Of a stretch of 64,000 nucleotides of DNA, positions 7,860 through 60,220 are shown piece after piece. The translations under genes and the position numbers were made by a program. The stretch's first letter is position 1. Each line of letters begins with the position of its first letter. The stretch comes from an uncultured bacterium (GTDB lineage Bacteria; Patescibacteriota; Gracilibacteria; Absconditabacterales; Absconditicoccaceae), in assembly GCA_947168725.1 (NCBI GenBank), contig CAMVNA010000004.1, forward strand, positions 10,110 through 74,109, given 5' to 3'. The notes under the pieces were generated by a model. It saw nothing but the letters and a program-made list of their open reading frames with translations, was not told the origin of the DNA and ran no database searches.

Positions 7860-9746
<1,887 letters not shown>

Positions 9747-10003: not shown

Positions 10004-10501
10004 TTAGATTTCAAGAATTCTTGACGCCAGCTGATAACTTCCCATATCAAACATACCAGTTGAAACGATAAGTTGTGCAACATCCTTAAGCTCTTCTTTT
10101 GCCTCACCAACAGAAACATAATTTTTTTCTCCTGAAACAGTAGCATCAAATCTTGCCTTGAAGAAGTTAAGCTCTTTCATACAAAGAATGTCAAATTCAC
10201 CTACATCGTCTACGTTCAAGAAATCTTTTAAAGAAACAAACGTCTTAAAATTCTCAATGAGCTCATCTGTGGAAATATAATCATCCACGATAATCTCACC
10301 AATCTGCTTTAAAGCAAAGGCTCGCTGACCTGGAGTCGTTGAACACTTATAAAGGGCAACATACATATCCATATCATAGCATACGTAGCCTTCATGATAT
10401 TCTTCGACATAGCCCAGCATAGCATCATAAATGATACTTTTTAAGAACTCACTCTTTGCTGAATTATACTCAGCGACCAGCTTTTTAAAATGATCAGTCA
10501 T
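10004..10501 (-). CDS. hypothetical protein (TGA-free, compositionally atypical)
   Basis: A complete 165-aa ORF under both code 11 and code 25. It is visibly more GC-rich than its neighbours, has no TGA codon, and has its own terminator. Confidence 0.7.
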   Translation of the reverse strand: MTDHFKKLVAEYNSAKSEFLKSIIYDAMLGYVEEYHEGYVCYDMDMYVALYKCSTTPGQRAFALKQIGEIIVDDYISTDELIENFKTFVSLKDFLNVDDVGEFDILCMKELNFFKARFDATVSGEKNYVSVGEAKEELKDVAQLIVSTGMFDMGSYQLASRILEI

Positions 10502-27581: not shown

Positions 27582-27722
27582 CAAAATTTAAAAATCTGAC
27601 TTATTGATATTTTTTTCCTACGTTTTAACAAGAAAACTTTACACCAAAGTTCTCTTGCAATATAAAGAATTATTTATAACCTGAATTATATAAAAAGTAT
27701 TTATTTCTTACAAAAACCAAAA

Positions 27723-28190
27723 ATGGAATATTATTATGACTACGGTACATCTAGCTATGGATGAATCATCTGATTAGCACTATTCATACGAGCAATTGTA
27801 TGCATGTGGAAGATTTTCAAAAAAGCTGGAAGAAAATGACGAGAATCCCTCATCCCAATCCGAAACATTTGGGTATTATTCAAAATTTCAGATCATAAAA
27901 AATGGTTTCGATGATTGTTTATAGTACCATTAGCATGGATTATTGTTTCTATAATTTTCCGATTATTATGAACTACATGAACTTGAGAATCGTTAATCGT
28001 AATCAAAAATGCTATAAACTGGATTTTAGGTATGTGCGCTATATTATTACCACTAATTGCCACTATACTTCTTTGCTTATGATTATCAAAAAAATTCGGT
28101 AAACATTGGGCATTTTGCTTATGATTATTATTTCTAAACCCTATTTTTTATGGAATTTTAGCATTTGACGATTCAAAATACAACTCATAA
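27723..28190 (+). CDS. small polytopic membrane protein (DUF5684-like)
   Basis: WKIFKKAGRKGRESLIPIRNIWVLFKISDHKKW is the typical motif of that family. Confidence 0.5.
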
Positions 28191-28226
28191 TATGAGTTAA
28201 ATACAAGCCACCTTCTAAAAAAAGTC

Positions 28227-28883
28227 TTACTCAACTTCTGAGTGAGATTTTTTCAATATTTTACTTGTAGCTCACACCGTACCCATAGAAATTACAAAAG
28301 ATATCGCATCAGAAACAGGAACATCAGTCTCCACAAAATCTCTAGGATTCAACATAACTAAATACCCATTTGCTGGATTTGGTGTCGTTGGTATAAATAC
28401 AGAAACCAAATTTGTTTCTCATATAGCACTTTCAAAACTGTCTAATTCTTCTCATGTCAAAAATCAAACAGACCATGTTTTTTCTGTTGGGAACCTTGTG
28501 AGAACAACTTTTTTAAATGAATTTGTATTTTGTAAAGTATTCGCAGCTTGATTTGTAATCTTAGTTAAAGAACTTAACAAAGGAACTTTTTCAATCAACG
28601 GATCTAAAAAAGCCTTCACCCTCTCTCAAACACGTCACTGATTCATAACAAATCATAACAACCAGATTAAACCACATAAAACCAAAAATCATAAAAAATG
28701 TACCACAATTTCAGGTAATCATAATTTATCCATCATAACATTAGGGAACAATTCTACAATTTTTCAAACCCGTTTTAATATCAACGAAATCAACCACCAA
28801 AGAATCACAAAAAACAAAACTGTCGGTAAAATCAACAATAATCACGTCAAAAAATGTTTTTTTTTCACTGTTTTATCCCCCAT
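28227..28883 (-). CDS. DUF502 family membrane protein
   Basis: Two N-terminal TM segments followed by VFIPTTPNPANGYLVMLNPRDFVETDVPVSDAISFVISMG. Confidence 0.65.
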
Positions 28884-31158: not shown

Positions 31159-32381
31159 TGATAAAACTAATTTGAAAAAAAGACAATCAATGGAAAAAAT
31201 TATTTCCTGTTTTTAGCAGACGTCCAGAATTAGTTTATCTAGATAATGCTGCATCGACCCAAAAACCCAAAACTGTAATAGATTGAATTTCAGATTTCTT
31301 AGAAAATGATTATGCAAATATTCATCGCGGATTGTACTCACTATCCGAAAAATCTGAAGAATTATACTACCAGTCAAAATACAAACTTGCTGAATTGATT
31401 AACTGTAAACCAAGTGAAATAATATATTCTTATAATTCCACATATTGCATAAATTTACTTGCACAAGCACTAGTAAATAGTTGAAGACTCTGAAAATGAG
31501 ATAAAGTTTTGCTATGAAATCGAGAACATCATTCAAATATATTACCATGGCAAACTTTGTCCAAAATATTTTGATTTAAAATAGAATTTATAAATGAAGA
31601 TAAAAATTATAATATCGACCGAAAAGACTTTGACAAAAAGTTTGATAAAAAAGTTAAAATCATATCATTATCTCACGTATCAAATGTTACATGACAGATA
31701 ATGGAAATAGAAAAAATTAGAAACAAAATCTGAGAAGATGTATTTTTCATTGTTGATGGATCTCAATCAGTTCCTCATATACCAGTTGATATTGAACAAA
31801 TTCAATGTGATTCTCTAATCATGACTGGACATAAAATGATGGCCTGCACATGACTCTGAATGATGTATCTAAAATACGAATGGATTAAGAATTTGAATCC
31901 TCTCATCCTGTGATGATGAACCGTAAAAGATGTAAGTATTGATGATTTTTCACTACAAAACAATGCAGATAAACGAGAAGCCTGAACCCCTAACATAGTT
32001 TGAGCAGTTAGTCTTTTAAAAGCATTAGAAACCATCGAACAACTATGATGAATAGAGAAAATTCAAGAACATGAAAAAATACTTATTAAACAATTATGCG
32101 AGTGATTCCAAAAAAGAAAAAATGAAATAAATTTGATATGAAGCTACGAAAGTGATAATCGTATATGAACATTTTCGTTCACTGTAAGTAACGAAAAAAA
32201 TTTTAATAAGATATGAGATATTTTTGGCAAAAATAATATATGTATCCGTACATGATGACATTGTGCATATCCTTTACATAAATCACTAAATATTTGATGA
32301 AGTGCTAGGGTTAGTACATACATATACAATACAAAAAAGGATATTGAAAAATTTTTCAATATCCTAGATAAAATTATCTAA
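31158..32381 (+). CDS. sufS: cysteine desulfurase (SufS/Csd, class V aminotransferase)
   Basis: VYLDNAASTQKP, LIMTGHKMMACTGLGMMY (PLP lysine) and IRTGGHCAYPL (catalytic Cys). The ATG overlaps the stop of the preceding gene (TAATG). Confidence 0.8.
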
Positions 32382-32418: not shown

Positions 32419-32447
32419 TTGATTTTTTTGATAATTATATGTATAAT
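32419..32447 (+). promoter_or_regulatory. sigma70-type promoter (TTGATT-N17-TATAAT)
   Basis: The track ATG at 32439 lies inside this promoter, so the ATG at 32484 is preferred as the start. Confidence 0.5.
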
Positions 32448-32483
32448 CATTATAGTTTTTTAATTAATATCAAATTTTTATTA

Positions 32484-33875
32484 ATGGATAATATAGAACT
32501 ACTCAAATTAGAAGCAGATGAAATCAAAAAGTCATTAAATGAATTAAAAAATAATATTTCTATTTCTGAAGATGATAAAAGAAATAAAGCAAATCTACTA
32601 AATAGACGAGCGGAAAAAACAAAACAAAAAATTCAAAAAGAAATAGATTCTTTAACTGACAAAACAGATGAAGAATCGAAGAAGAAAAAAGAAGAAGCTG
32701 AAGCTCTTTTAAATAGTTTTAATGATATCACTGCCTTATATAATTCTATCATAAATCCTTCCTCAAACCCATGAACTCATGATTCAAGAACTCAAAGTTC
32801 TGAGCAAACACCAACTGAAAATAAAAACATATTTACAACAGCTACAGATTGGATAAAGACCCAACGAAACAATATATTAGATACAAAAAAACGAAAAGAA
32901 GAGTGACGAGAGAATTGATTTCGTTTAGCATGATTTGCAGCAACATGAATATGAGCACTTGGTCTAGCATATAAATGAGCAAAAAGCTTACGGAATTGGG
33001 CTTTTTGAAGTGATAAGAAAAAAGAAAAAACAGAATCTAAAAAAAAGAAAAAGAAATTTGGTGACAAATGGTATGGTAAGTTACTAAAATGGGCTGGAAT
33101 CACAACAGCAGCATGAGGATGAATTTATTTTTTAGGTAAGCATTTTAATTTATGGTGAAGTACAGACAATAATACAGACAATAATACAGAAAACCAACCA
33201 GCACAACAACAAGATAAAACTACAGAAAACTCTGAAGAAAAATCGAATGAAACAAAAGACTCAAAAGAGAGTTTTCAACCAACATCAGACAAAATATCAA
33301 ATGAAATGTTTGAGCAACTATTAAAAATGGAAGGAAAACACAAACAAGGCAACAACACCCTCGTCGCAAAAACTGGTAAACAATTTTGAGAAAAATTTCC
33401 TACATGACCTTTTGGTATGGTCTATAAACATATAGACAACGAAGGAAACTTACTTAAAAAAGCTATTCCTTTCAAAGAATGAGAAGAGGTAACAGAAGAA
33501 TGGGGAAGAAAAAATGCAAAAGCCTGCTATGACAAAAGAGCCAAAGAAATAAAGGAGGCATTCGATAATAAATGATACAAGTTATCACAAGATCAACTTG
33601 ATGCTCTTACATCTACATGCGGAGGAACATCTAAATCAAGAAAAAATTGTTTAAATTTTGTCCTGGAAAATTGGAACAATCAAAAAAAAGTCGTTGACTA
33701 CATCAGTACTCATTCCACTACTGCAGCATGAAATCATCAAGTTCAGCCTGGACTAGTTTACCGTAGAAAATTCGAAGCTGACTGGTTCGTATGAAACAAA
33801 ATGACTTTTGCAGAACATAGATCAATGCAAAAAAAATGAAAAAACACAAATCCTAATTACAGTCATTTAGCATAA
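32484..33875 (+). CDS. modular envelope protein 1: coiled-coil N-module + two Gly/Ala-rich TM segments + GH24 (phage/T4-type) lysozyme-like C-domain
   Basis: 463 aa. N-module MDNIELLKLEADEIKKSLNELK...ALYNSIINP. TM segments LAGFAATGIGALGLAY and WAGITTAAGGGIYFLG. The C-domain reads LLKMEGKHKQ...PFGMVYKH...QPGLVYRRKFEADWF, with the GLxxRRxxE..F ending typical of GH24 lysozymes. Confidence 0.7.
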
Positions 33876-33917
33876 ATAAATCAATCCATACAACTAATAT
33901 CAAAATATTTACAATAA

Positions 33918-34613
33918 TTATTTTCAAAAATTCTGACTCTCTAAACTATCATTCCACCGCTCAATAGCTTTTTCAAACTCCTGAACCGTAAACTGAGGAC
34001 AATACAAATCTGTAAAATAAAGCTGAGCATATCAAATTCGCCAAAGCATAAAACCTGACAACCTTTTGGCCAATTTTTGCTTTGTCCTAATAACCAAATC
34101 AACCGTTGGCAATCATCAAAAATCCATATACTTCTCTAAATTTTCTTTATTAATTTTTTCTCAAGAATCGTTTAATTTTTTCATTGCTCTCAAGATTTCA
34201 TCCTGTCATCCATAATTCACAGCTAAAACAAATATTCTCGAACTTTCTAAAAATTTAAATTCAGATTCTTTTTCCTCTAAAAAGTTTACCAAATGAGTCG
34301 GCAAACCAGATTTATCTCATGCTACACGAAAATTAACATGATTTTTACGCATCATATCATACAAATTTTCAGTAATCCTTTTATACAAATTAAAAAGATA
34401 ATTTAATTCCATTTTAGTTCTATTTTTTAAATTTTCCGTACTTAATCACCATAAAGTAAACACTTCAATAGTAGTATTTTCAAAAATATGAACAGCAAGT
34501 TCAATACATCTCTGAAAACCTTCTAAATGTCATTCCAAACTAGCCTTTCATAATTCTTTTGCCCAAGTTCTATTTCCATCAGGAATTAACGCTACATGTT
34601 TTGGATATTGCAT
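33918..34613 (-). CDS. uppS: undecaprenyl diphosphate synthase (isoprenyl transferase)
   Basis: HVALIPDGNRTWAKE...FTLWGLSTENLKNR...AVNYGGQDEI...DLVIRTKQKLAKRLSGFMLW. Confidence 0.9.
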
Positions 34614-34742
34614 TCAAAAAAACTAATATAAAACAAAGAAAATATATCAAATCAGATTATTTATTCAAGAATAGTATTTACACCAATAAATGATTTAATT
34701 CTCTTCCAATAAAAGAACTTTCAAAAAAAGTACCCCCTATTT

Positions 34743-34770
34743 TTGCATTTTTTTTAATTATGGATATAAT
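34743..34770 (+). promoter_or_regulatory. sigma70-type promoter (TTGCAT-N16-TATAAT)
   Basis: ttTTGCATtttttttaattatggaTATAAT lies 33 nt upstream of the ATG at 34803. Confidence 0.55.
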
Positions 34771-34802
34771 TGATTTGAATTGTTTAATTTCATAAAAATG
34801 AT

Positions 34803-36359
34803 ATGAACGATAATATTGACCTCTTAAAAACAGAGGTAGATAAAATCAAAAAATCATTAAATGAACTAAAAGATAATATCACTTTTTCTGAAACAGAAAA
34901 AAAAGACCAAGCTGAAATTCTAAACAAACAAGCAGAAGTAACAAAACAAAAAATTCAGAAAGAAATAGATTTTTTAGCGAACAAAACGGATGAAGAATCA
35001 AAAAGAAAAAAGGAAGAAGCTGAAGCTCTTTTAATTAGTTGTAATGATATCACCGCCCTATATAATTCTATCATAAATCCTTCTACAAGCTCAACAACTC
35101 AAAGTCCCAGTCAATCACCCACTGAGAGCACAAACATATTTACAAAAGCAAAAGATTGGATAAAAAACCAACGAAACAGCATCCTAGACAGGGGAAAGTG
35201 GAAAACAGAATGATGAAAAAATTTATTACGTGCAGCATGAGGTGCAACTTCACTTGTTCTGTTATATAAATGAGCTAAGAAATTATGGAATTGGGCATTT
35301 TGAGACAATGAGAAAGAAGATAACAACGAAAATTACGAAAGTAAAGAAAACACGAGTGAAAACGATGAAGAAAAAACAGAAGTAAGAACAAATGAAGAAA
35401 CAAATGAAGAAGAAAATAACAATAATGACAATTATGCGGAAACAACTGAAGGCAATACTAAAGAAGAAAAGAAAGAAAGCATCTGGAGTAAACTGTGGTG
35501 AAAAGCTTTAGCTTGGTTATGAATTGCACCTGCTGCTTGAACCGCTGCTGCCGCCTGAGCTGCTACCGCCTGAGCTACTGATAAAGAATCAGATTCATGA
35601 ACAAGCGAAGATGTGGGAAAAGATGAAAGTACATCTAATGAACCTGATAAAGAAAATAGTTCTGATCCTTCTACTAATACAAATGAACCTGAAAATAGTC
35701 CCGATAAAAAAGAATCCAACGAGAACACCACAAAAAAAGATACAAAAAATTCAACTAATTCTAATGAATCTAAAGAAGTAGATAAAGGAAAAAATACTTA
35801 TACTAATCCCATAAGTGGATTAACTTATAAACGTATTGATCAAGTTACAGACCCAGCAGGAAAATTGAGATACTCATGAAAAAGAAGTGGTAAAACTGTA
35901 GCCAATATTTGATGTTTACTAGCTTCTGGATGTACTGTAACCTCTGCTCTCTGCCCAGAAGTAACCTTAACAGATTGTTTTAATAATGTTAGACATTGGA
36001 CCGCCGATAAAGCTGTTGCAAAAATGTCGAACAATAAATGGAAATCGGAAGCTCTTTTATCATGAGAACATGGAAACAGAACAAAGACACAAGAACAAAA
36101 AGCAAAAGAAAAAATAATAGAAAACTTAAAAAAATGATATCCTGCTGTCATCGGTGCCAGACATTCAGGTATTGATGGAATAAATAACAGTATAGTATCA
36201 CAACATTACCGTGCTATTTTAGGTATAAGAACTGAAAATGGGAAGAATGAATTCTTCGTTTGAAATACTTATAAAAATGGATCATGAGGATGGATGGATG
36301 AAGATAAAATATTTAAAAACATGATACACGCTTCTATATTTACTCCAAATCAAGCATAA
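34803..36359 (+). CDS. modular envelope protein 2: same N-module + Gly/Ala-rich TM segments + acidic/Ser-Asn linker + C39-like (papain-fold) Cys peptidase C-domain
   Basis: 518 aa. The N-module is about 75-90 percent identical at DNA level to gene 32484. TM segments GGATSLVLLY and ALAWLGIAPAAGTAAAAGAATAGA. The C-domain has SGCTVTSALC (candidate Cys nucleophile) and SQHYRAILGIR (candidate His). Confidence 0.7.
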
Positions 36360-36394
36360 TAAATAATTTATTTTAATTTTTAATAAAAAATATT

Positions 36395-37786
36395 ATGACA
36401 AAAATCGAACAATTGGAAAGTAAGACATCTCAAATCAAAGATGATTTGAACAAATTAAAAAACGATGTTAATCTTTCAGAAGAACAAAAGAGAGAAAAGG
36501 CTCAAGAAATCTTTACTGGTGCAAAAGATATTGAACTGAAAATTAACGAACTGGAATCTCAAACATGAGAAGGATCACAAAGAGACACAGACAGAGCAAA
36601 ATTACTACTAAAAAATTTTGAAGAAGTAAAGACATTATATAACGATATAATGTGAGAAGAAACTAGGAATCAAAATCTAAATCAAAACAATACAAATCAA
36701 ATAGAGGATAAAGATCAAACAACGAATACTCCAACTTCTGAAGTTCAGGATGAAGACAAATCAATTTTATGAACAATTGGAAACTGGTTCTGAAGTGCAA
36801 AAGAATGGATATGAAACCAATGGTCAGATATATGGAATACAGATAAACGAAAAGAAGATTGACTGAAGAATTGATTACGTACAGCATGATTTTTATGAGC
36901 AGCTGGTTTTATATATGAATGAGCGAAAAGTCTGTGGAATTGGGCTTTTTGAGATGACGAGGAAGAACATGAAGAAAAAACAGAATCTAAAAAAAAGAAA
37001 TCTGGTGATAAACGGTATAGTAAATTGTTAAAATGGGCTGGAATCACAACAGCAGCATGAGGATGAATTTATTTTCTAGGTAAACATTTTAACTTATGGT
37101 GAAATGACACATCTATCGAATCACAAAAACCAGAATCTTCGACAGAAACCCAGATTGAACCTACTTCAGAGAATAAAAATAATAACCAGGAAGAAAAGCC
37201 ACAAACTGATAAAACATCAGAAAAACCAACCACATGAGAGCAAAAGACTGCAGAACAAAAGAATAATAATCAAAAAGAAAACTTACAAGTCAGTAATTCA
37301 TGATATACAACTTGAGAAGACTTAACTAAAAAACAACAAAACATTATGGGACAAAAGCTTAACAAAATAAATTCTCCAATTACAGTAAAAATGGTACAGG
37401 ATTCTTGTAGTACTCATAATGTACCAGTTGAATACTTATTAGGTTTTATGCAAAATGATAGCAGTTTATGAACAAAATGAAAATGAGCAAAAACCCATAA
37501 TCCATGAAATGTATGAAACACCGATAGTTGAGGTACCAAAGATTTTTGAACACGAGAAAAATGAGTGGATGCTTGTGCAGAAAATCTAGAGAAACGTATC
37601 GTCGCCTACTCCAAAGCAAAAAAAGAACATAATTGAAAGTGATTTAATGACTTCCCTACTCCTAAAGAATTAGCCACATGAAAAAGCGAGGGATGAACCA
37701 AATTTTTTGGAGTTTACATGACAAGTAAAACTTGACCAACTAATGTTACAAAAATAATAAATTCTCGAGCTGACTCTTTATCATAA
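36395..37786 (+). CDS. modular envelope protein 3: divergent coiled-coil N-module + the same TM2 block as protein 1 + lysozyme-superfamily-like C-domain
   Basis: 463 aa. LKWAGITTAAGGGIYFLGKHFNLWG is encoded by a block about 94 percent identical to 33081-33159. The C-domain reads VPVEYLLGFMQNDSSLG...HNPGNVGNTD...ACAENLEKRI (SLT/glucosaminidase-like motif order). It is a paralogue of 42072..42890. Confidence 0.65.
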
Positions 37787-37850
37787 ATTGAATCATTATT
37801 TATTTTATTCAATAATGATTTCTATTATCAAAATAAAAAAACCTAAAAAT

Positions 37851-37879
37851 TTGACAAAATTTATTCAAAATGAATATAA
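37851..37879 (+). promoter_or_regulatory. consensus promoter AAAAATTTGACAAA-N17-TATAAT
   Basis: TTGACA at 37851-37856 and TATAAT at 37874-37879. Confidence 0.6.
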
Positions 37880-37917
37880 TAAAACTATAATATTTTATCA
37901 TATTAACCACATTAACA

Positions 37918-38601
37918 TATGATTAAGACAAACACCTCTAATACTATAGAAAATCCAGAAACTCCTTCTTCAAACTTTTCTCATGAATTGAGGACTTTAT
38001 GAGACGAAATAAGTAAAATCAATAATTTAGATAAATGGTATATCCAAAACAATAGAAAAGAAAAATAAACCAGAAAAGACTCACACAAATCCCAAAAGTG
38101 ATCTAACTTATAATCAATATGATCAAGATGACCCTCGTTGGAAAGACATCAATCTTATAGAGAGGTACTACAATAGGAAAGATTGGATGAACTGTAACAG
38201 CAATTGCTTGCATCGCTTCACCAGCTAACCCTTTAATAACTCCTAAGGATACTGCGGAATATCGTTGACGATTCCCTGATCGTGCCATCCCCAAAATAAC
38301 AAATGATAAAATAAAATCAGATCGCTTAACAATAGATGATAACACAAACAATAGAATAAAAAAATATTTAGAGAAATGATACCCTGCAATTATAATGGTA
38401 AAATGTAGAATGGGCTGAGGACAAAACAAACTAATTAGATGACAACAATATTTAGCAATTGTCGATTATAGAAACAACAATGGGAAAGAAGAAGTTTTTA
38501 TAGCGAACACAGATAATGGTAAATGAGGAGGATGGATGCCTCTAGATAAAGCTTTTGTTAGTATAAAGGAAGCTACATTGTTTACTCCCACAGGAAAGTA
38601 A
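37918..38601 (+). pseudogene. decayed paralogue of the C39-like modular protein (multiple frameshifts or stops, catalytic Cys codon changed)
   Basis: Homology to the family is spread over three frames. 37949-38068 reads HELRTLGDEISKINNLDKW. 38067-38228 reads THTNPKSDLTYNQYDQDDPRWKD. 38161-38601 reads RGTTIGKIGGTVTAIAC...KGYPAIIMV...QQYLAIVDYRNNNGKEEVFIANTDNGKGGGWMPLDKAF. The only ATG ORF (37918) stops at 38014. The TM and linker modules are missing. Confidence 0.6.
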
Positions 38602-38604
38602 TAT

Positions 38605-39507
38605 CTATAAATAATATACTTCATATTCCACATTATCCCTCAGAGAACACTTTCCTTCTGCAATATACCTACGGAACCGTGTTCTCTGTTTTTTTGCTAA
38701 ATAATGCGTGTTTTTTCTCAAAGATTCTTCCATAGTATCATAATCATATTCTCAGTAAATATATCAAACAACTTCCTTATAACCAATTCATTGCATAGAT
38801 TGTAAACTCGGTGAATATCATTTATCCAAAAGTCATTTTACCTCATCTATCAGTCAACTTTTCAGCATCTCTTTAATTCTAGCATTTATACGCATATTTG
38901 TTTCCTCTTTTTCACGCCAAAGTCACAACATTAATAAAGGATGCTTAACTGGCTGATGAAGGAAAAGTTCTGTTTTTGTTTTTCAAGTTTCATAATAAAT
39001 TTCCAACGCACGAATAATATACCTGGTTGCATTCGGATGTAATTTACTCGCCTCTTCTGGATCTACTTGCTTAAGAAGATTATATACATATCAAGGTTCA
39101 GAATCTTCTTTTTTTTGTAATTTTTCACGATATTCATAATTTGGTGGACATTCTGGCATTTGAAAATTTTTATAAATCGTATCTATATAAAGTCCAGTTC
39201 ATCCAACTATAACAGGAGTTTTTTTACGTCAAAGAATATCTTCAACTTCACTTTCTACATCAAACTTCCACTGTCATGCAGTGTATGTTTCATCCGGATT
39301 TACTATATCAATCTGATAATGTGGAATTTTTTTACGCCATTCCAATGGAACTTTATCCGTTCAAATATCCATTCCACAAAAAATCTGTCTACTATCCGCC
39401 GATATTATTTCTATATCAAAAAAATCTGAAAGTAATAACGATAGTTTACTTTTTCATGTAGCCGTAGCTCACCAAATAATTATCGTTCAATCTGAAAACT
39501 GATTCAA
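38605..39507 (-). CDS. miaA: tRNA dimethylallyltransferase MiaA
   Basis: P-loop IIIWGATATGKSKLS (G is TGA), EIISADSRQIFCGMDIGTDK and VGGTGLYI. There is no in-frame ATG upstream of the P-loop, so a TTG at 39507-39505 is proposed as the start (uncertain). Confidence 0.8.
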
Positions 39508-39581
39508 AAAACTTTGACAACAATACTTGATTTTAGGCAATATATCAACTATCTCCATAAACTATACCCTTCACAGATAAA

Positions 39582-40505: not shown

Positions 40506-40681
40506 AAAAGAATCAAAGAAAATAAAAACGATTAATTCATAATACTATTTTTAACAAAATATGCAAGAAAGTTTTTCGCAATAAAAACTTACATTGAAAA
40601 AATTTTACTAAAAAAGAAAAAACATATTCTATCATACAAAAAAACAATTAATATCTAAAATCAAATTTTCCTCTGAAAAAT

Positions 40682-40709
40682 TTGACAAATTAAAAATTTT
40701 AATTATAAT
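40682..40709 (+). promoter_or_regulatory. consensus promoter AAAAATTTGACAAA-N16-TATAAT
   Basis: TTGACA at 40682-40687 and TATAAT at 40704-40709. Confidence 0.6.
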
Positions 40710-40766: not shown

Positions 40767-42026
40767 ATGTCCAAAGATACATACAAATGAGAGGGAAAAA
40801 AAGAAGTAACAGAACACCGTAAAACCGAGTGACGTTCAACTGAAGTCGAAAAAAAAGAATATAAAGAGAACAAAAAGCAAAAGAAAGAATCATCAGAACA
40901 AGAAGTAAATAAATCAAAACAGCAACTTACAGGTTTAGAAAAATGGTTAAAAGAATATAAAAAAATAGAAAAAAGGAAAAAAGAATTAGAAGAAGAAATA
41001 TTAATATATTTTAAGAAAAAATGAAATAATATTAAAAATGAAGTAAAAAAGGATACAGAAACAGAAAATAAAGTAAAAAAGGAAAACGAAGAAGAACCAA
41101 AGAAAAAACATAGAAAATGGAGAGAAAAATACAAAAAAGCGTTAAAAGAAAAAGGAATATTATTAACAAACAAAGAGCGAGAAAATATAATTAAAAAACA
41201 TGATAAAAAAGAATTTAAACATTTTTATAAAGACTTAAAAAAAGCAATAAAAAAAGATGAAATAGATAAATTTTTAAAAAAATGGAAAAATAAAGGTTTT
41301 GATGGTTTATTAGAACAATTTTCAAAAGAAGACAAAAAAGAAAAGAAAAAAGAAAAGAAGGAGAAAAAAAGCTCACATAAGCATAGAAAACATTCGAATA
41401 AATCAACAGATAACTCTTCAAGTTCAAGTGGATGATCTTCTTCTGAATCAACAGACAACTCTCCAAGTTCAAGTGGAGGATCTTCCGATTCAACGGACAA
41501 TTCTTCAGAATCAAATAATGAATCCTCTGAAACAAATAATTCCTCAGAATCTGAAAACAACTTAAATGCTTATACAAATGAATATATACCTGAAGAAAAA
41601 GTAAAAGAAGCTCGAGATTATATTGCAAACTGATGAACATTTCATTCCCCTAGTAAATGAACTATTAAGTGGGGTCGAAGTGATTATAAGCATGTTTGTT
41701 CAACTTGATCATTTAATGTATTATGGAAATTAGGATTACCAAAAGTATCCAATTCTACTGAATGTGATTTAAAATGAAAAATATTACCAAAAATGGGGTT
41801 AAAATATATTTGAGAAGTAGATCCAGACAATCCGGAAAAAGATTGATATAAACCACAGAATTGAGACACAGCAGTACGGCCAAGATTCAATGGTACTCAA
41901 CATCAAGCTACATTTATAAATTGACATTGGGTATCAGACACCATACAGAAGAAAATGTCTTGTTATAACGCAAAAAATGAACCAAATGTTAAAATATATC
42001 GCTATACATGAGAACAGACTGCTTAA
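40767..42026 (+). CDS. Lys/Glu-rich coiled-coil protein with Ser-rich linker and papain-fold (NlpC/P60- or CHAP-like) C-domain
   Basis: 419 aa, frame verified. It has about 200 aa of K/E-rich helix, STDNSSSSSGGSS repeats, then YKHVCSTGSFNVLWKLGLP (Cys) ... GTQHQATFINGHWVSD (His). The long minus-strand track ORFs here are shadow ORFs. Confidence 0.6.
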
Positions 42027-42071: not shown

Positions 42072-42890
42072 ATGATAGAAGTCGAGCAAAACAATAATCA
42101 AGAAAAAGAAAGTTATGAAAACACTCTCAAAAAAGTTGAGACAGAGATTGCTGAATTAAATGATGACAATGTAGATAATGACAAGATTGAATTAGACTGA
42201 CTACTCACACAGTGATTTGCGGAATATCTCTGAGCAGAAAAAGCAAAAAAAATCCTTGATTCCATTAGTAATATGGAAGACAAACCTGAATGATTACAAC
42301 AACTTGAAGATTTCCTTAAATCTGCTTCGTTATCTTTGAATCAATGAATAGGTGAAAATGAGAGACAACAAGAAAACCTTATTAAGTGACCTGATAAGTA
42401 TATATATTGATATAATTTAACAGAAAATCATCTAAATAAGATATCAAATACGTTTAAAAAGCTAAACTCTCCATTGGAACCACAAATGATAAAAGATTCT
42501 TGTTTAAATTTTCCTTATCTACCTGCCGAATATCTTTTGTGATTTATGCAAAACGATAGTAGATTATGAACTGCCTGAAAAAGAGCAATAAATAATCATA
42601 ATCCATGAAATGTATGAAATACTGATGACTGAAAAAATAGGTATTTTGAAACACGGGCAGATTGAGTTAATGCTTGCGCAGAAAATTTAAAAAAACGTAT
42701 TGATGCTTATTCTAAAGTAAAAAAAGAACATAATTGAAAATGATTCAACGATTTTCCAACTCCAGAAGAATTAGCAACTTGAAAAGCTAAAGGTTGAACT
42801 AGATTTTTTGGAGTTTATATGACAAATCCTAGTTGACCATCGACTGTTGCGTGAATAGTAAATCATCGAAACAAAAAACTCAGAACATAA
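42072..42890 (+). CDS. short paralogue carrying the lysozyme-superfamily-like C-domain of protein 3
   Basis: 272 aa. LPAEYLLGFMQNDSRLG...HNPGNVGNTDDG...ACAENLKKRIDAYSKVKKEHNGKGFNDFPTPEELATGK, about 78 percent DNA identity to 37420-37780. The N-terminal GLLTQGFAEYLG...LQQLEDFLKS motif is shared with gene 44716. Confidence 0.65.
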
Positions 42891-44234: not shown

Positions 44235-44324
44235 AAAATAGACCAAAATTTAAAGATTCTTTTACATTCTATATGGGTATATTTTTATTTTTTTATTTCA
44301 AGATATAAAAAAGTCCCCAAAAAT

Positions 44325-44353
44325 TTGACAAATTTTATAAATTTGGCTATAAT
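44325..44353 (+). promoter_or_regulatory. consensus promoter AAAAATTTGACAAA-N17-TATAAT
   Basis: TTGACA at 44325-44330 and TATAAT at 44348-44353. Confidence 0.6.
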
Positions 44354-44715: not shown

Positions 44716-47103
44716 ATGACTTTTGAACAATTTGGTGAATCTACTGCGGCAACTACTCCATTAGTAACAACAAATGGTGAACCAATTACGCCCGATGGTA
44801 ACGCAACTACAACCACAAATACTGGCGAGACACAAACAACAACTGTTGAACAAGGGCCTGATGCTGATTTAAATCAAAGATATGAAACTGTTAGACAAGA
44901 ACTACTTCAAGTCGGTGGAGTTGATACAAGTGACGATAATATCGAAATCGCTGATTGACTTCTAGATTGAAAATTTGCCGAATATTTACTAAAAAACGAA
45001 ACATCTCTGAACGCGCTGAAATGATTTGTTAATACGATAAAAAAAGATTGACTTAAAAACAAAGCTTGAAATGATTTAAAAAAATTAGAAGACTTCCTAA
45101 ACAACATCTGAAATAATGAGAAGATGGAAAAGGATTTCAAAAAATTTATGGATAAATTACAGAAACCAAAAGATTTACATAAAGTTAAAGAAAAAGAACT
45201 TAGTGCTATCACCATGCACCTATCATTGAATCAAAACGATGCAATGCTTGCATATAAAAGTATGAAAGCCATTCTTGACAACCATCAAAACTTTTTTGGT
45301 ACAGGTATGAAATTGGATGATGTAAATGTTTTTCAAGCTGTTTGGAATTCATTAAAGAATAATTACCAAAATAATGAAACATTCATTGAAGCAGAATACC
45401 CTGGATATTCAGCATTATCTGATAGAGCGATCAGTATTCAAGCATTTCTTATGGCAAATAAATGAATAATATCTTGACCATGACTAGAATGGGAATGAGA
45501 TGAGATAACAGTAGCACATCTAGAGAACAAACCTAACTCTATAGTAAGCAGAGAAGCAATTGTTACTAAACTTAACGAACTCAACAACCAAAGAGTCGCT
45601 AAAAATAAAAGTTTAGTAGAAGCTGTGGACATCAACATACCAACTGCAGACTTTACTAAAACAGCAGAATGAGGGTTAAAGTTTAAATGAACTGAATTCT
45701 CAGCAAATGATGTGATGATGTATAGTGATGAAATAAGTGCGGCAGTTAATGGTGGAGATTTTGTAAATGATAAAGAAAAATGGAGAACTATAAATGAATG
45801 TAGAAATTCATTATATGAAAAAATTAAAGCAAAATTATTAGCTGATCCTTCAGTAGCACAAGAAGGTTCAACAAACAACCCTAGTCAAAACACTAATCCT
45901 GAACAAAACACTAACCCTGGTCAGAACACTAATCCCGAACAAAACACTAACCCTGATCAAAACACTAATCCTGAACAAAACACTAATCCTGATCAAAACA
46001 CTAATCCTGATCAAACTAATGAAACATGATGAGAAAATGTTGAACTTGATGCAAGGTTGAATCTTAAGAGTAGTGTAAAAAATAAACTTGTAGAATTATG
46101 AATTTTCGAAAACGCTGAAAGCCATACAGTAAAAGAACCAGCTATGAAATCTTTTATCGATACCATAAAAGATAAACCATGGAGTGAATTACAAGGTCAA
46201 GGACATGTAGACAAGAGAGCATGGATTGCCACAGTACAAATAGCATTAAATTTTATAGGCGTAAAAAATGAGAAAAGTGAATACAAAGTAAAAACAATTG
46301 ACTGAATACGTGGTAAAGAAACAAGGAGGGTCATCAGAGCATTCCAAAAAGATAACGAATTGGGAGTAGATGGTAAACCATGACCAAAAACTCTTACCAA
46401 AATTTTAGAAACACTTGGATGAATCAGAAGTAGTAATGAATCTACAACGAACAAACCAAATGAAAAAGTTTTTGACTATGATAGTGCTACATCATTAGAT
46501 AATACAAAGGTTCAAGAAATTTTGGATGCTCGTAAAAAATATGATGAATCTGATGAATGAAAAAATGATAATAACGTACGTGTGCTCAAATTAAATGGGC
46601 TTACTAGCCTAACAGAAGAAAATGCTACTGCTCTATCTGCATGGGAATGAAATATACAAGTTAATAAACTATTAACAGATGCAGCTGGTGAAAAAGGTGA
46701 ACAAACCATAACAGTATTAAGCAAGCTAGCACCTAAAGGTGGTAAAGCTATTATCGAGACTTCAGATAAGGATACTTTCGATAAATTGAAAGATAAATGA
46801 TTTGAACTCAAGCTAATAGAGACAACTCAACCTGAGACTCCAACTGAGACTCCAACCGCAACTGAGACTTCAACTGAAACTCCAACCGCAACTGGGACTT
46901 CAACCGAGACTCCAACCGCAACAGAGATTTCAACTGAGACTCCAACCGCAACTGAGACTTCAACTGAGACTTCTGTACAGACTACAACTACAGTGGACAA
47001 CAATAACAGTGTAACTGTTTGATGAGATAACAATTGAACCATTATACAAGATAATGACTCCAGTGTCACCAACAATAGCACAGTAGACGACATGGGAGAC
47101 TAA
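44716..47103 (+). CDS. large surface protein with peptidoglycan-binding (PG_binding_1-like) domain and two tandem-repeat linkers
   Basis: 795 aa, joining track ORFs 44716, 45124 and 45712 in one frame. AWIATVQIALNFIGV...IDGIRGKETRRVIRAFQKDNELGVDGKPGPKTLTKIL is a PG_binding_1 pattern. It carries NTNP(E/D/G)Q and TETPTATETS repeats. Confidence 0.7.
45886..46014 (+). repeat. 18-nt coding tandem repeat (about 7 units, QNTNPE/D)
   Basis: Units of caaaacactaatcctgaa with synonymous or near-synonymous variation. Confidence 0.85.
46831..46972 (+). repeat. 30-nt coding tandem repeat (about 4.5 units, TETPTATETS)
   Basis: Units of actgagacttcaactgagactccaaccgca. The minus-strand track ORF 46827..47093 is its shadow. 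Confidence 0.85.
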
Positions 47104-47151: not shown

Positions 47152-50100
47152 ATGTTAATTTACAAAAGAGCTAACTTTGCACCAAATGGATGACCTGAAC
47201 AACAATCTCAGGAACCCACACCTGAAGTAAAAATCCAGGATCTCAAAAGAGAAATCAAGGAATTAAGTGATAATGATGCTAAAAATGATGGATTCGAAAG
47301 TAAGATCATCGTCGACAACCAACTTAATGGCTCATTAAGTACTGAATTATTAAAACCTGAAAATAAAAAAACTCTCAATAACCTAGTAAAAGAGCTTTCT
47401 AAAATCCTTGAGAAAAAAAACTATGACACAAACGGTGCAGATTTATTAAATTTATTAACTTGAGTACAAAAAAAAGCTGAATTTAATAGACTCAATAAAA
47501 TTATGACAAATCCAAAAGAAGCAGGAGGAATAAAACTAGATGATTTATGAAAATTTAATGATCAAGAAATAAAGTTGGTTTGTGATTATATAAAGGATAA
47601 TATTGTATCTCCTGAATGTGCAAACTTACATAAACTGTTTGTTACATATAAATCCATGGAACAAAGCATAACCGACAAAAAAGCAAAAGAAAATTTTCTA
47701 AATATTCAAAAATCACTATTAGATTCTTGATGAAATTCTACTGTTGCAGTTGAAATAGAACTATCTCATAAACAATTAGCTGAAATTTTTACAGATTTAA
47801 GCGTTGAAAAATTTAATTCAATAATAACAGAATATACGAACCTTACTGATTGGAAAGGTACTCCCCTCGAAGGACAGATTGGATTTAAAAATAATTGAAA
47901 AAATTTTACTGAAGGTGAATTTGTTGCATATTTTAATGGAGCTAATGAATCCAGAAAACAAGCTAACGAAGCAATAGCTACTGATTTCCGTCTATGAGAT
48001 ATAACACAAGATACATTGAAAAATTTTAGAGTTAAAGATAATAAATTGCTCTATAACTGACAACCATGTAGAAACGAGGATATCAAGGCAGTTTTTTGAG
48101 AGACAAAAATCAATCCAGCATTAAAAGAATGAATTTTCTTTTGAGATGAAAAAGCAGCTATTGAATCAAAAATCTGTGACAAAATAACAAATGAGATAAA
48201 GGATAAACTTCAGAATTCAGATCAAGAGGTAAATAAAGAAAAATGGACTATGAAACCTGAAAACTTTGACAAAATAAAAAGTACCCTATGAGACAGAATG
48301 TTTATTAATATGGATGCTGAAGATAAGGTAACCTATATTCCTCAAAAAGCCAAAGCTTACCTATCAGAATATAGAAATAAAGAATGGCAAGATATCAAAA
48401 AAGACTTTAACACACCAAACTGAATGGCTTATGTCGCAGCCTTACAAATTTTATTGAATGTTGATCATGACGCAAATATAAACGTAGATGGAATATGGAA
48501 ATATAGTGGACAAACCCAAGAAGCAGTAAGAAAATTCCAAGAAAATTATAATAACAATTTGCCAACAGATTGAGTAAAAATAGAAAAAGTAGATGGACTC
48601 CCATGAAAGATAACATTAGAAGCTCTACTTGATGGTCAATATGGAGATGCCGGACTCGACGGACAATGGAAAGTAAATCCAGATTGAACATGAGAATTTT
48701 TAGACTGAACAGAAATCAAAGAAAAAGATGGTAAAAAGTATATTACAATAGATGGACAAGACTATTATGAATACACAGAAGGAATGGAGGGACCGGGATA
48801 TCGATTTTGAAAGAATGATGATCATGACAGTCGACTTTATGTTTGAAATTTTAAAAATGGGAAATCACAATGAGAATGAACTTGTACTCGAAATAATTGA
48901 GAGAAATATGTATGAAAACGAGAGAAAGATTGTAGAACAGAGTGAACATATACTTGGCCTGCCGGTACTCCCGATAATTTCCGTGAATATGTATGAAAAT
49001 TTGATTATAAAAATGATAAATATGTAATGACTGATTGAACGATGACCTATGAAGATAACGATAAATATAAGTGAGCATTTAATGAAAAAAATGAAAAGCA
49101 GTGAAAGTGAACATATACTTGGGCTAATTGAAATATCCTCAATTGAACTTGGGAGAGGGATCATCTTGAGGGAGAAGGTACAGTTTCATTCCCTAATACT
49201 GACATACCTGATCTAAAAGTAGTTTTAGATGGAGATAAATTAAAAGTAACATCTGACTTACCAGCATTTAAAGATAAATTAATTTATGTCGAAACATGAG
49301 AATTTGTCGATGCTACTAACACAACTCCTGAGGCACCAGAGAAGAATCCTGCCGTCGTTGAATGAATTTGAAAGTTTGAAGGTGATACATTCAAATTTGA
49401 TAATGTAAATGAATTAAATGGAAACAAGTATGTGAATATATGATGAAAAAATTACTATGAATACAGAAATGGTATGAACGGTGACTGATATATGGTAGTC
49501 CCAAAGACAAACGAGCATTCTGCATATGTATTATATTGACATTACGAAAATGGAGTAATCATGAATTGAACTGTACATGATGCAGAGGGAAATAAATATG
49601 AATGAGAATTCAAAGATGGTGAACGTTCTTGAAAATGAAAGGCAACGATGTTTGACTGAACAACTTTGTCATGTGACACGTTTGTAAAGGGTCTTCCTAC
49701 ATGAAAATGTACTATTGAATATTGAAGTTCAGAGGACTGGAAAGATGAACTTGGAAAATGGGAAAAATATGAATGAGAAATACAAAACAGAGTACCTTCT
49801 TGAAAAGATTGAACTATGACTTGGAAAAACTGAGACAAATATACATGAGAATGGAAGGATGGAAGAATGGACTGAGATTGAACTTATACTTTCCAGAACG
49901 GTACAACAATCGAATGAACAATTGTTTGAAAATTTGAAAAAGGAAAGCTTACAACATGAACTCTTACCTTTAAGGATTGACAAACATTCAACTGAGCATT
50001 TAATGAGACTTGGACTCCTGATACAGGAACTTTCAAAAAAGATCAAAATGATCAAGGGGTACATGTAGAATCAGATGAAGTTTGATTAAAGGATGATCAA

Positions 50101-50193
50101 GGTAACTACGTTTATAGACGAGAAGGTCAGATGCCAGCTACAAACCAAGCTTCTTCAAGAAGAAGAGAGTAATAGCTCCAGATCAATTATAAT
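47152..50193 (+). CDS. giant surface protein: PG-binding domain + MORN-repeat array
   Basis: 1013 aa, with the frame checked at six positions. YVAALQILLNVDHDANINVDGIWKYSGQTQEAVRKFQ...VDGLPGKITLEALL is PG_binding_1-like. There are many YxGxxxxGxxxGxG units (e.g. GDKYTGEWKDGRMDGDGTYTFQNG), with most Gly residues encoded by TGA. Confidence 0.7.
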
Positions 50194-54445: not shown

Positions 54446-55255
54446 ATGAAAAATCCTGCAATTATAGAAGAAATATGATGAATAGAAGATATGCATTTAG
54501 GTGAAATCACTGATAATGAAAAATCAACAAAAAAAGAAATTAATATATTAAAAGATAGTATAGTAGATAATTTTTATCAAGTAGAAGGAATATGAAAATT
54601 TAATAACCGATCTTTTATTTTTGATAATGGTGTAGAATGAAAGGATGAAAAATGAAAATATATAACTATTGATTGAGAAAAATATTATAAATATGAAGAA
54701 TGAATAAACGATAAATGATATCAATATTATATTTCGGAAGATAATATAGCTTGCTTATATATTTGAGATTTTGTGGAAGGGGAAATGGAATGAAAATGAA
54801 TACAATTTATGGATAATTGAAACAAATTTGAATGAATTTGGAAAAATGGAGAGCCTGTAAAATGAATACTTACATATGCTGATTGAGATAAATATGAGTG
54901 AGATTTTAAAAATCATTATATTTGTTGAAGGTGAATATATACGTACTTAAATTGAGATAAATATGAGTGAGATTTTGTAAATAATGGTTTTGAATGAAAA
55001 TGAAAATATACTTTTGTGAATTGAGACAAATATGAATGAGATTTTAAAAATGGTACTTATAATTGAGAATGAACATTAACTTGGGAAAATAGTTGAGAAA
55101 TTTTAAAATGAGAATGGAAAAATGGTAAATGCGTTTCCTGAAAAATTACACTAAATCCATGAAATCGCATATTTGATGTAACAGAAGATGAAAAATGACT
55201 TAAGATAATTACCCCTTGAGAATACGAAGGTAAATACACAAAAGAAATAATTTAG
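54446..55255 (+). CDS. MORN-repeat protein
   Basis: 269 aa, with repeated DGDKYEGDFKNG / NGDKYEGDFVNNG units encoded by near-identical gattgagataaatatgagtgagatttt blocks. Most Gly residues are TGA. Confidence 0.7.
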
Positions 55256-58380: not shown

Positions 58381-60195
58381 ATGAAAGTTATTAGAAATTT
58401 GCTATTAATTATATGATGATTATATTTCAGCCTAAATTTTTGAAATTTTTCATTCGCAAATGACTACGAATATGAAAAATTTGATGTTTTAGCTGATTTA
58501 AAAATAGATTGATCTATCAATGTAAAAGAGACTTTTACAGCAAATTTTTTTGAACATAAACATTGAATTATAAGATTTATTCCACTTAATTATTCTGTTT
58601 TATGAAAAGATTTTCATATTGATATATCAGATATTTATGTAGAATGAAATAAATTTACTAAAACTATAAATAACTGAGAATTGGAAATAAAAATTTGAGA
58701 TGCAAATAGGACTATTATTTGAGAACAAATTTATCCAATATTTTATTCGGCTTATGGTTTAATTAGAAACTTTTCGTGAATGTGATATGCGGAACTTTAT
58801 TGGAATCTTGTATGATATGATTTTGATACTAATATAAATAGCTTTAAAGCTGAAATACTATTACCTAAAGGGTATACGTGATTTTCGAGTGATGACTTTT
58901 TGATTACTGTAGATTGAAAAACTTCAAATGTGAAAGATTTTGCTTGAAGTGTAAATCGAAGTAAATGAGATAGAATATCAATAAATTATAATAAAAAATT
59001 ATCTGCTGGAGAATGAATAACTCTTGCAATTAAGTTTCCAAGTGATTATTTTGAATTTGACCATAAAAAACAGTCTAAATTGATTGGATATGTATGATGA
59101 AAGTTTAATACAAACTTAGATTTTTTCCCTTGGAAATACCTATGAATCTGAATTATTATAATAATTATATTCGTTATGATAACGAGTCATGGTGATAAAT
59201 GATCTAAAATTAAAGAATCTGAGCTTGCGAATAAACTTGAAAAAGAGTCGCCCATAGTTGTTAAATACACTCCTCCAGAATGAATAAATTGTGCTGAAGC
59301 TTGAATGCTTTATGATTGTTATTTACAAGAAAAGGATTTAACAAGTTTATTGTATAAACGAGCCGTTGAATGATTTATCTCTATAACTTTGGATGAGAAT
59401 TGAACTTTTAATAGAAAAACTTGATTTATTATGACTAAATTAAAAGATATTAATAGTTCATTTCCTCAATATGAAATAGATTTATTTAATTCTATTCTAC
59501 CAAGAGGTATAAATTCAAAAAAATATGTTTCTACGGCTTCAGAATTTGATATCGTTCGGTCTTTAAAGTCACTAAGAAATTATGGTAAAGGAAATTGATG
59601 GATTAGTGTCTGATGGTTTAATAATTCAAAAAAGTATATTTGATTTTTTGTAGCAATAATTTTACTATTTGTTTTAGGTAAGATGGGAGTAAATATGGAG
59701 GCCGTTATTTTTATAACCGTTGTTTTATTTTCAATATTTAATGCAGATTCATCATCTCCTAGCCAAAAACAAATATCATTAACTGATAAGTGAAAACAGA
59801 TAGCAAAAGATGTTATATGATATGCAAAATTTATTCAAATGTGTGATGAAAATAAACTTAGATTATTTTTAAAACAAGATTCGACATTTTTTGATAAGAC
59901 GTTACCATATGCTGTAGCTTTTTGATTTGAAACAGATTTTATCAATAAAATTACACCTGTATTAGCAGAATTGGATATGAGACCTTCCTGGTTTGGATGA
60001 AACGTAAATGAAATAGATTCTGTATCTAGAATTGTGAGAGATTCAACTAGAGCAGCAGAATGGAGAAGAGCTAAGGAAAGAGAAAGACTTTCAACTTATA
60101 GTAGTGATAGCTGATTTTCAAGTGGATCATCATTTTCGTCTTGATGATTTTCTTTTTGATGATGAGGTGGATGATGAGGCTCAAGAAGCTGGTAA
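58381..60195 (+). CDS. DUF2207-like membrane protein with poly-Gly C-terminal tail
   Basis: 604 aa, invisible in the standard-code track. It has a signal peptide, a beta-rich ectodomain, TM segments, YTPPEGINCAEAGMLYD, LPYAVAFGFE, and the tail FGGGGGGGGSRSW, in which five of the eight Gly residues are TGA. Confidence 0.65.
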
Positions 60196-60220
60196 TTGTT
60201 TATATTATTTTGAAGATATT

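Follow-up and report, generated by a model that had tools for sequence, protein, structure and literature searches.

A 64,000-nucleotide (nt) stretch of contig CAMVNA010000004.1, called the window here, carries three complete open reading frames (ORFs), P1, P2 and P3, each with promoter-like sites upstream. Their products share an N-terminal module (N-module, or HEAD-TM module, TM standing for transmembrane) and end in the C-terminal domains C1, C2 and C3, respectively. They occupy two variable slots, A (P1) and B (P2 and P3), which are separated by uppS as a conserved anchor; the syntenic order is SLH protein, class-V aminotransferase, slot A, uppS (opposite strand), slot B and miaA (opposite strand). 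A sequence-only reading of this DNA had claimed that near-identical blocks are shared pairwise between the three genes, and had proposed recombinational module shuffling rather than plain duplication and divergence. That proposal is supported by a breakpoint test, by synonymous sites and by swaps between strains.

The gene models depend on the genetic code. Under the standard bacterial code the region holds short ORFs only and its genes appear in fragments, which makes the locus a clear case for retranslating code-25 genomes. With TGA read as sense, the window's longest ORF grows from 205 to 1065 amino acids (aa), and the summed length of long ORFs rises from 15.6 to 91.3 kb. TGA codons outnumber TGG codons by ~5:1, and the canonical GIDLGTTNS motif of the DnaK gene (7860-9746, minus strand) appears only with TGA as Gly. 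Given the longer ORFs and the DnaK motif, genetic code 25 (TGA = Gly) is in use across the window. This code is known from Gracilibacteria and Absconditabacteria, and the window (29.7% G+C) probably derives from a rumen Absconditabacteria-type bacterium belonging to the Candidate Phyla Radiation (CPR). One homologue comes from a Candidatus Absconditabacteria metagenome-assembled genome (MAG), a related contig belongs to the Patescibacteria MAG UBA3291, and rumen metagenomes are the origin of nearly all related contigs. Public databases hold these proteins in code 4, with each TGA-encoded Gly written as Trp (18-30 such differences per database protein), and such entries weaken both domain detection and structure prediction.

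Mosaic Structure of P1, P2 and P3

Block A of P1 (32619-32762) matches 34941-35083 in P2 at 131 of 145 aligned columns (90.3%, close to the ~90% first claimed), and block B (33024-33159) matches 36974-37103 in P3 at 120 of 136 (88.2%); random segment pairs from the window are 48 +/- 3% identical, with a maximum of 58%. The perfect 46-nt run reported within block B has exactly two occurrences, at 33086 and 37030. The true shared run is 47 nt (33085/37029), the longest exact match among the three genes (25 nt for P1-P2 and 17 nt for P2-P3). One detail has to be corrected, as block A was placed at the end of the N-module and lies instead at the end of the three-helix head.

Divergence along the paralogues is not uniform, and identity switches between segments. 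In a codon-guided alignment the head is 74-94% identical between P1 and P2 and 45-60% between P1 and P3, the zone of the first hydrophobic helix is 65-75% identical for all pairs, and the loop end with the second helix (TM2) is ~90% identical for P1-P3 and ~42% for P1-P2. Segments of one gene thus do differ in closest relative, as had been proposed, with P1 being P2-like in the head and P3-like in the loop and TM2. A maximum chi-square test on the three sequences, drawing on the 258 informative sites at which P1 sides with P2 or with P3, gave 93.8 at a breakpoint near 32872, a value equalled in 0 of 5000 permutations (p<=2e-4). P1 is P2-like upstream of ~32872 and P3-like downstream, and third codon positions switch likewise. 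Where the encoded amino acid is the same, the codon is also identical at 82% of positions for P1-P2 in block A, 86% for P1-P3 in the zone of the first helix (TM1) and 76% for P1-P3 in block B, against an expectation of ~50% at synonymous saturation and 36-46% for other head pairs.

The nearest neighbours of each segment are incongruent across 45 N-modules. The P3 head is at most 42% identical in amino acids to any other member, and its TM2 is 78-81% identical to P1-type sequences. With the head of P3 standing apart and its TM2 falling among C1-lineage sequences, the comparison suggests that P3 acquired a P1-type TM2. Judged from these alignments, segments have been exchanged between paralogues within the N-module.

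Two further pairings, both involving C-domains, survive in part. The C-domain of P3 is related to that of G42072 (42072-42890), as claimed, at 61% aa; identity over the same coordinates is 72.3% nt and not ~78%. The C-domain of P2 and the fragment at 38161-38601 are of the same domain type (33-34% aa), whereas their DNA is 53.5% identical against a 49% baseline, with no near-identical block and no shared junction sequence. Their relation is one of ancient paralogy and not of recent exchange.

The fragment itself (38057-38601 in full) is a decaying independent gene. Its promoter is homologous to that of an intact 363-aa gene in the related locus L004, it carries a frameshift near 38125-38164, and the part encoding N'', an N-terminus other than the N-module, is deleted. 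The position of the catalytic Cys is Gly (TGC to TGA under code 25) and the His has become Gln; the copy in locus L001 has different lesions. A role as a functional silent cassette was considered and is ruled out by the fragment's own promoter, its frameshift and its dead catalytic residues.

Cassette Replacement between Strains

Two independent assemblies, L001 (JGI, 96.6% identity) and L002 (ENA, 98.6%), have the same arrangement as the window and are collinear with it over 14.5-21 kb; the recurrence of the same mosaic in both argues against an assembly chimera in the window. Other strains differ within closely similar surroundings. In L003 and L004, with flanks at 94-98%, C1 (97% nt) stands behind an unrelated TM-less N-terminus, accompanied by an extra 142-aa gene, and comparison with the window gives a sharp junction at 33284, at the first conserved residues of C1. 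Slot B of the same two loci has just one gene, the 363-aa N''-C2', which is either intact or survives as a 5'-deleted remnant. L007, with flanks at 92-98%, has a P2-type gene whose C2 is 93-100% identical in nt from ~35690 and whose N-module is 60-85% identical. In L010 a P2-type C2 (81% aa) stands behind N'', and a C3 88% identical to that of P3 goes with an N-module head of ~32%.

L012, a single 6.9-kb contig of the same lineage (96.5% identity to the window over 5.3 kb), differs in the fine structure of its slot-A gene. From HEAD to TM1 this gene is 92-100% identical to P1, its block B is 95-96% identical to P3 and 78-88% to P1, and its C1 is 92-99% identical to the L007 allele and 53-88% to P1. 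The allele is a three-way mosaic of a P1 head, a P3-like block B and an L007-type lysozyme allele, with a tract even more P3-like than that in P1 of the window.

A metagenome scan anchored on uppS recovered 80 loci, and architectures were counted where both flanking markers were present. Empty slots included, slot A showed eight architectures in 20 loci and slot B eight in 12 loci, so that both intervals flanking uppS act as cassette hot spots across the clade. On these comparisons whole N-modules or cargo cassettes have been replaced between strains, with the replacement junctions at module boundaries that adjoin low-complexity A-rich linkers.

Several smaller observations concern the same intervals. 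The 142-aa gene is conserved, is often found directly upstream of the slot-A C1 gene and is absent from the window; it has no Pfam or PHROG match, and it could serve the lysozyme gene as partner, regulator or chaperone. At its 3' end the aminotransferase gene has a perfect 28-nt palindrome (32338-32365) with a minus-strand T-run, terminator-like in form; the replacement junction of slot A, at ~32377, follows just downstream. Synteny with L003, L004 and L007 breaks at 40576-40591. Downstream of this point the window and L001 have the genes G40767 and G42072, and the other strains have an ATP-cone gene and a 736-aa gene, both absent from the whole window, which makes it a second point of plasticity beside the hydrolase genes. 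A DUF5684-like gene (27723-28190, in 27628-28248) is missing at the syntenic position of L007, a small strain-specific indel.

The N-Terminal Carrier Module

The module common to P1, P2 and P3 comprises a head of three helices, a pair of weakly hydrophobic Gly/Ala-rich helices and linkers of low complexity. AlphaFold2 models were made from exact slices of database homologues that carry Trp for TGA-encoded Gly, and are approximate for that reason. They predict a three-helix bundle (helices 5-25/31-60/65-92; predicted local distance difference test, pLDDT, 91-96), followed by a disordered linker, an amphipathic helix and two long helices with a disordered, highly charged loop between them. The N-module matched no Pfam family. 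Its Foldseek matches were confined to generic three-helix bundles (BAG, spectrin, Habc), each at E>0.1, and nothing tied it to folds of the LXG, WXG, colicin, holin or tape-measure type.

In P1 the two Gly/Ala-rich helices span aa 146-166 (core ~32919-32981) and 200-221, behind the folded 95-aa head. With TGA read as Gly, the two hydrophobic segments contain 43-74% Gly/Ala/Ser/Thr and have a summed Hessa deltaG of +3.3 to +7.5 kcal/mol, values that point to marginal membrane helices and not to classical anchors. A Lys cluster precedes the second helix of P1 and the flank after it is acidic or polar, a distribution of charge consistent with a predicted N-in/C-out signal-anchor.

Searched exhaustively in HMMER with an N-module profile, 1.84 billion representative proteins yielded 152 clusters, 104 of them at E<=1e-10; the phyletic distribution is based on this search. 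A scan of genome contigs with the HEAD profile confirmed at least one genome (UBA3291). The module is always N-terminal, in proteins of ~430 to 1793 aa, and at least 13 cargo clusters could be distinguished among the 95 complete members. Conversely, C1 to C4 (C4 being the C-terminal domain of G40767) are each found also behind unrelated N-termini, and the alternative N-terminus N' carries C1, C4 or another cargo depending on the genome. By these counts the N-module family is small, lineage-restricted and combinatorial. The literature search found no description of the HEAD-TM family, nor of polymorphic toxins in Absconditabacteria.

Cargo Domains

Searched singly against Pfam, none of the window proteins reaches the cut-off, and the domain assignments come from family-level profiles. 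For C1, PF00959 matches seven of nine family members (best 1.5e-6); P1 itself scores 19.2 bits (E 0.0016), under the 22.3 cut-off. The C1 profile matches lysozymes and endolysins in the PDB at 1e-4 to 0.03, a PDB sequence search with the P1 C-domain alone gave no matches, and a catalytic-type Glu (that of LLKMEG, near the domain start) is invariant. C1 is accordingly assigned as a GH24/phage-type lysozyme.

The other three domains are assigned by resemblance. C2, in P2 and the 38057-38601 fragment, appears Peptidase_C39_2-like: PF13529 matches three of seven members (best 3.2e-7; P2 itself E=0.025, below cut-off), there is no PDB sequence match, and P2 and L004 retain the Cys (NIGCLLAS) and the His (SQHYRA), both of which the pseudogene has lost. 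C3, in P3 and G42072, appears Glucosaminidase/GH73-like, with PF01832 matching 14 of 15 members (best 2e-7; P3 itself E=0.012, below cut-off), weaker SLT matches and weak MltC matches in the PDB. C4 has no Pfam match. Cys46 and His123 are invariant, and its model (pLDDT 84.5) has the NlpC/P60 protein SAV0400, SpvD, staphopain and Cg1735 as its top Foldseek matches, all at E>=0.13; its predicted fold looks like that of a papain/NlpC-P60-type Cys/His domain. C4 is fused to the HEAD-TM module in the database protein P0085, and to N' in L020, L029 and L032.

Elsewhere in the family the N-module precedes Peptidase_M15 (2e-23), YkuD L,D-transpeptidase (2e-24), GH25 muramidase (3e-19), SLT (9e-7) and weak CHAP domains, so that all identifiable cargo appears to be peptidoglycan-active. 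Three large cargo clusters are without identification. The two largest cargo clusters (database proteins P0034-P0048 and P0121-P0134) have no recognisable domain; the first set are ~670-aa proteins with an extra Gly-rich hydrophobic region and the second range from 431 to 1793 aa. They may represent non-enzymatic or novel wall-active cargo.

Locus Map and Neighbouring Features

The features of the locus are collected in Table 1. A start for P1 at 32439, an upstream ATG, is an alternative to 32484; in favour of 32484, homologues begin at MDNIE and promoter-like -10 elements (32442-32456) lie downstream of the 32439 ATG. The database orthologue of P1, P0001, is identical except for Gly/Trp coding and a few changes, and P0030 is identical to P2 except for Gly/Trp coding.

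Table 1. Positions of the modular genes, their parts and flanking features (window coordinates unless a locus is named)
Feature	Position	Strand	Description
P1	32484-33875	+	HEAD-TM N-module and putative C1 GH24-type lysozyme; 463 aa; code-25 ORF
P1 HEAD	32484-32759	+	Predicted three-helix bundle; holds block A, 32619-32762
P1 amphipathic helix and first weakly hydrophobic Gly/Ala-rich helix	32838-33008	+	Alike in all three paralogues
Block B in P1	33024-33159	+	Lys-rich loop end and second Gly/Ala-rich helix (LLKWAGITTAAGGGIYFLG)
C1 cassette, putative GH24/phage-type lysozyme	33284-33872	+	Left edge is the strain-level replacement junction
uppS, undecaprenyl-diphosphate synthase-type prenyltransferase	33918-34613	-	PF01255 on orthologue
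P2	34803-36359	+	HEAD-TM N-module, long acidic loop, putative C2 Peptidase_C39_2-like cysteine peptidase; 518 aa
C2 cassette of P2	35690-36356	+	Boundary from L007 comparison
P3	36395-37786	+	Divergent HEAD, P1-like TM2 (block B', 36974-37103), C3; 463 aa
C3 of P3, putative GH73/Glucosaminidase-like	37295-37783	+	
Sigma70-type promoter, perfect TTGACA-N18-TATAAT	37851-37880	+	Upstream of pseudogene
Pseudogene, N''-C2' remnant (C39-like)	38057-38601	+	
miaA (IPPT)	38605-39558	-	PF01715 on orthologue; conserved right boundary of slot B
G40767	40767-42026	+	Lys/Glu-rich N-terminus, Ser-rich linker, C4 at 41568-42023
G42072	42072-42890	+	Different TM-less N-terminus and C3 at 42414-42881
142-aa gene	L003 4203-4631; L004 2711-3139; L011 5511-5939		Also in many other loci

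A promoter motif (CCnAAAAATTTGACAAA...) is repeated at 37835-37864, 44309-44338 and 40682-40709, and its occurrences include two perfect TTGACA-N16/18-TATAAT promoters, one upstream of the pseudogene and the other upstream of G40767. Beyond the cluster, 44716-47103 encodes a 795-aa protein with a PG_binding_1 domain and tandem NTNP(E/D)Q and TETPTA peptide repeats, a further envelope- or peptidoglycan-associated product close to the hydrolase genes. Two MORN-repeat paralogues, at 47152-50172 (1006 aa) and 54446-55255 (269 aa), share 33-37% identity over repeated segments. The adjacent genes 58381-60195 and 60032-61276 encode DUF2207-type membrane protein paralogues (31% identity); their seeming overlap may come from a wrong start choice for the second. 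ORFs 10004-10501 (minus strand) and 62382-62741 (plus strand) lack any TGA codon, though TGA-encoded Gly is frequent elsewhere, which could reflect chance in short genes or recent foreign origin. Neither ARAGORN nor Rfam detected an RNA gene in the window.

Interpretation and Alternatives

The reading we favour, with a probability of about 0.78, is that these genes belong to a modular family that is mosaic by homologous recombination at two levels and that bears peptidoglycan cargo on an N-terminal carrier. At the first level, ectopic gene conversion acts between paralogues inside the shared N-module; at the second, whole N-modules or cargo cassettes are swapped between strains at module boundaries near low-complexity linkers. 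DNA uptake, which is common in CPR bacteria, probably aids the exchange between strains. The second hydrophobic helix, following its Lys cluster, would serve as a signal-anchor and keep the enzyme, flexibly tethered, on the outer side of the cytoplasmic membrane. The enzymes may then act at the cell surface, against either the cell's own wall or that of a host or prey bacterium, and the strain-level turnover may reflect diversifying or accessory-gene selection, plausibly tied to interaction with host or prey walls. For the predatory absconditabacterium Vampirococcus, secreted peptidoglycan hydrolases have been proposed to degrade prey walls (PMC8080830).

Several points weigh against this reading. 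The Pfam scores of the window proteins themselves fall below the curated cut-offs, leaving the domain calls to family-level profiles. The shared blocks are 88-90% identical and not identical outright, so the exchanges would not be very recent, and their direction is taken from nearest-neighbour patterns only. The N-module model was built from Trp-for-Gly sequences and resembles nothing beyond generic three-helix bundles; the deltaG values are marginal for membrane insertion, in proteins without an N-terminal signal peptide, which bears on the predicted topology and on export. Finally, all of the sequences come from short-read metagenome assemblies, in which chimeras of strains or paralogues are possible for single contigs such as L012.

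The main functional rival is that the proteins are housekeeping autolysins, acting on the cell's own wall in growth, division or pilus insertion, with neutral turnover between strains. We consider this unlikely, although much about the locus would suit it: the neighbours are housekeeping and envelope genes (uppS, the SLH protein, the PG_binding_1 protein), the cargo includes non-lytic remodelling enzymes (the YkuD L,D-transpeptidase, M15), the module resembles a membrane anchor, and there are no immunity genes. Set against this are presence and absence, pseudogenisation and replacement among strains whose flanks are 92-98% identical, together with empty slots in several relatives, which means that none of the members is essential on its own. 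One carrier bears at least 13 cargo clusters, and such fast combinatorial turnover is more typical of accessory, interaction-related genes such as polymorphic effectors. Secreted peptidoglycan hydrolases of predatory Absconditabacteria have been proposed to act on prey walls (PMC8080830).

A classical polymorphic toxin-immunity system, in which the N-module would be a delivery domain, the C-domains toxins and the fragment downstream of P3 an orphan toxin cassette, is improbable. The layout invites the comparison, with a conserved N-terminus, variable and strain-specific C-domains, a C-domain remnant beyond P3, and identifiable cargo that targets peptidoglycan throughout, as in many effectors of type VI and type VII secretion systems (T6SS, T7SS). 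Yet no immunity-sized ORF follows any of the genes: there are no small code-25 ORFs after P1 (42 nt to the convergent uppS) or P2 (36-nt gap to P3), none after P3, where the pseudogene promoter follows, or G40767 (45-nt gap to G42072), and none after G42072. No recognised trafficking domain was found in the N-module and no secretion system among the neighbours, which are housekeeping and envelope genes. The supposed orphan is a decayed gene with its own promoter, dead catalytic residues and no shared junction.

It is very improbable that no recombination took place and that P1, P2 and P3 are old duplicates whose segments differ in purifying selection. Other species (L011, P0011-P0020) conserve LLKWAGITTAxGGG, the TM2 peptide, at the protein level, so constraint does contribute to the similarity of P1 and P3. 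Uneven constraint at the protein level fails to explain the mosaic, however, since third codon positions switch with the rest and the same codon is used at 76-86% of positions in the blocks against ~50% at saturation. Divergence at synonymous sites (dS) is not uniform from segment to segment. Nor does uneven constraint suit the contrast between the P3 head and its TM2, and it cannot yield strain comparisons that jump from ~60-85% to 93-100% nt inside one gene.

Least credible of all is an assembly artefact, in which the assembler jumped between paralogues or coexisting strains at shared k-mers and made chimeric genes: the short-read origin of every contig, the 47-nt exact run of P1 and P3 and the single contig of L012 would allow it, whereas the arrangement recurs in L001 and L002 from different projects, the separately deposited proteins P0001, P0030 and P0053 match the window versions, blocks at 88-90% have not collapsed to identity, 47 nt falls below the final k that assemblies typically reach (k141 in the contig names), and the P3-like tract in the P1 allele of L012 needs two crossovers within ~120 nt.

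The modular-family reading can be carried further. The HEAD and the Gly/Ala-rich hairpin might form an undescribed, CPR-specific export or delivery device for swappable peptidoglycan-degrading enzymes at the contact with host or prey, with the islands around uppS as an arms-race locus that reassorts carriers and cargo. In function it would amount to a polymorphic effector system, one in which immunity genes would not be needed if the producer's wall is chemically or spatially protected. We regard this extension as speculative and rather unlikely.

Relation to Known Systems and Significance

As in polymorphic toxin systems of the Rhs, CdiA, LXG and MafB types, a conserved N-terminal region precedes many unrelated enzymatic C-terminal domains, C-domains are exchanged by recombination at a junction, each strain has its own repertoire and degraded C-domain remnants are found close by. 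Unlike in those systems, all identifiable cargo here is apparently peptidoglycan-active, the N-module is itself mosaic, and at least two other N-terminal carriers (N' and N'') draw on the same cargo pool. The proteins are also small, at ~400-700 aa with some up to 1.8 kb. Modular phage endolysins and bacterial autolysins use the same catalytic families (GH24, GH25, GH73, CHAP, M15) and likewise exchange modules across flexible linkers, but here the variable catalytic module is C-terminal and its constant partner is a helical bundle with a hydrophobic hairpin, not a cell-wall-binding domain. A phage origin was also considered and is ruled out by null searches of PHROGs and viral contigs; the locus has no PHROG matches, no phage genes and no relatives on IMG/VR viral contigs, and chromosomal synteny is conserved.

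Three other systems share single features. Signal-arrest-release (SAR) endolysins have a helix of that name N-terminal to the muralytic domain, weakly hydrophobic, rich in Gly/Ala/Ser/Thr and marginal for insertion, much as here; the SAR domain stands at the extreme N-terminus, whereas the paired helices here lie 145-230 residues in, behind a folded three-helix domain. VirB1-like conjugation hydrolases of Gram-positive bacteria (CwlT, PrgK, TcpG) and T6SS/T7SS effectors (Tae, Tge, Tlde1) similarly combine N-terminal membrane association with lysozyme, SLT, NlpC/P60, CHAP or L,D-transpeptidase-type domains. Here, by contrast, there are no conjugation or secretion genes nearby, each protein has one cargo, and combinatorial alleles occupy a fixed chromosomal site. 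In Neisseria pilE/pilS, Borrelia vls and Mycoplasma MgPar, short tracts are copied between paralogues and segments of a gene have different closest relatives, as in P1; unlike those systems, the locus lacks the layout of one expression site plus promoterless silent cassettes, and whole enzymatic domains are also replaced.

The locus thus acts like a polymorphic effector family and like modular endolysins, yet does not qualify as a member of either. Modular hydrolases and polymorphic effectors are known; what is new is a lineage-specific carrier module combined with an interchangeable pool of peptidoglycan enzymes in two slots around uppS. Absconditabacteria and related bacteria have tiny genomes and live as episymbionts or predators; few if any have been brought into culture, and how they breach or remodel walls is largely guesswork. 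With a carrier confined to the lineage, peptidoglycan-active cargo and two hypervariable slots, the locus is a concrete and testable candidate for this function. If the enzymes act on the walls of hosts or prey, the cassette repertoire could determine or track host range, and the recombination seen here would be the visible trace of a rumen arms race.

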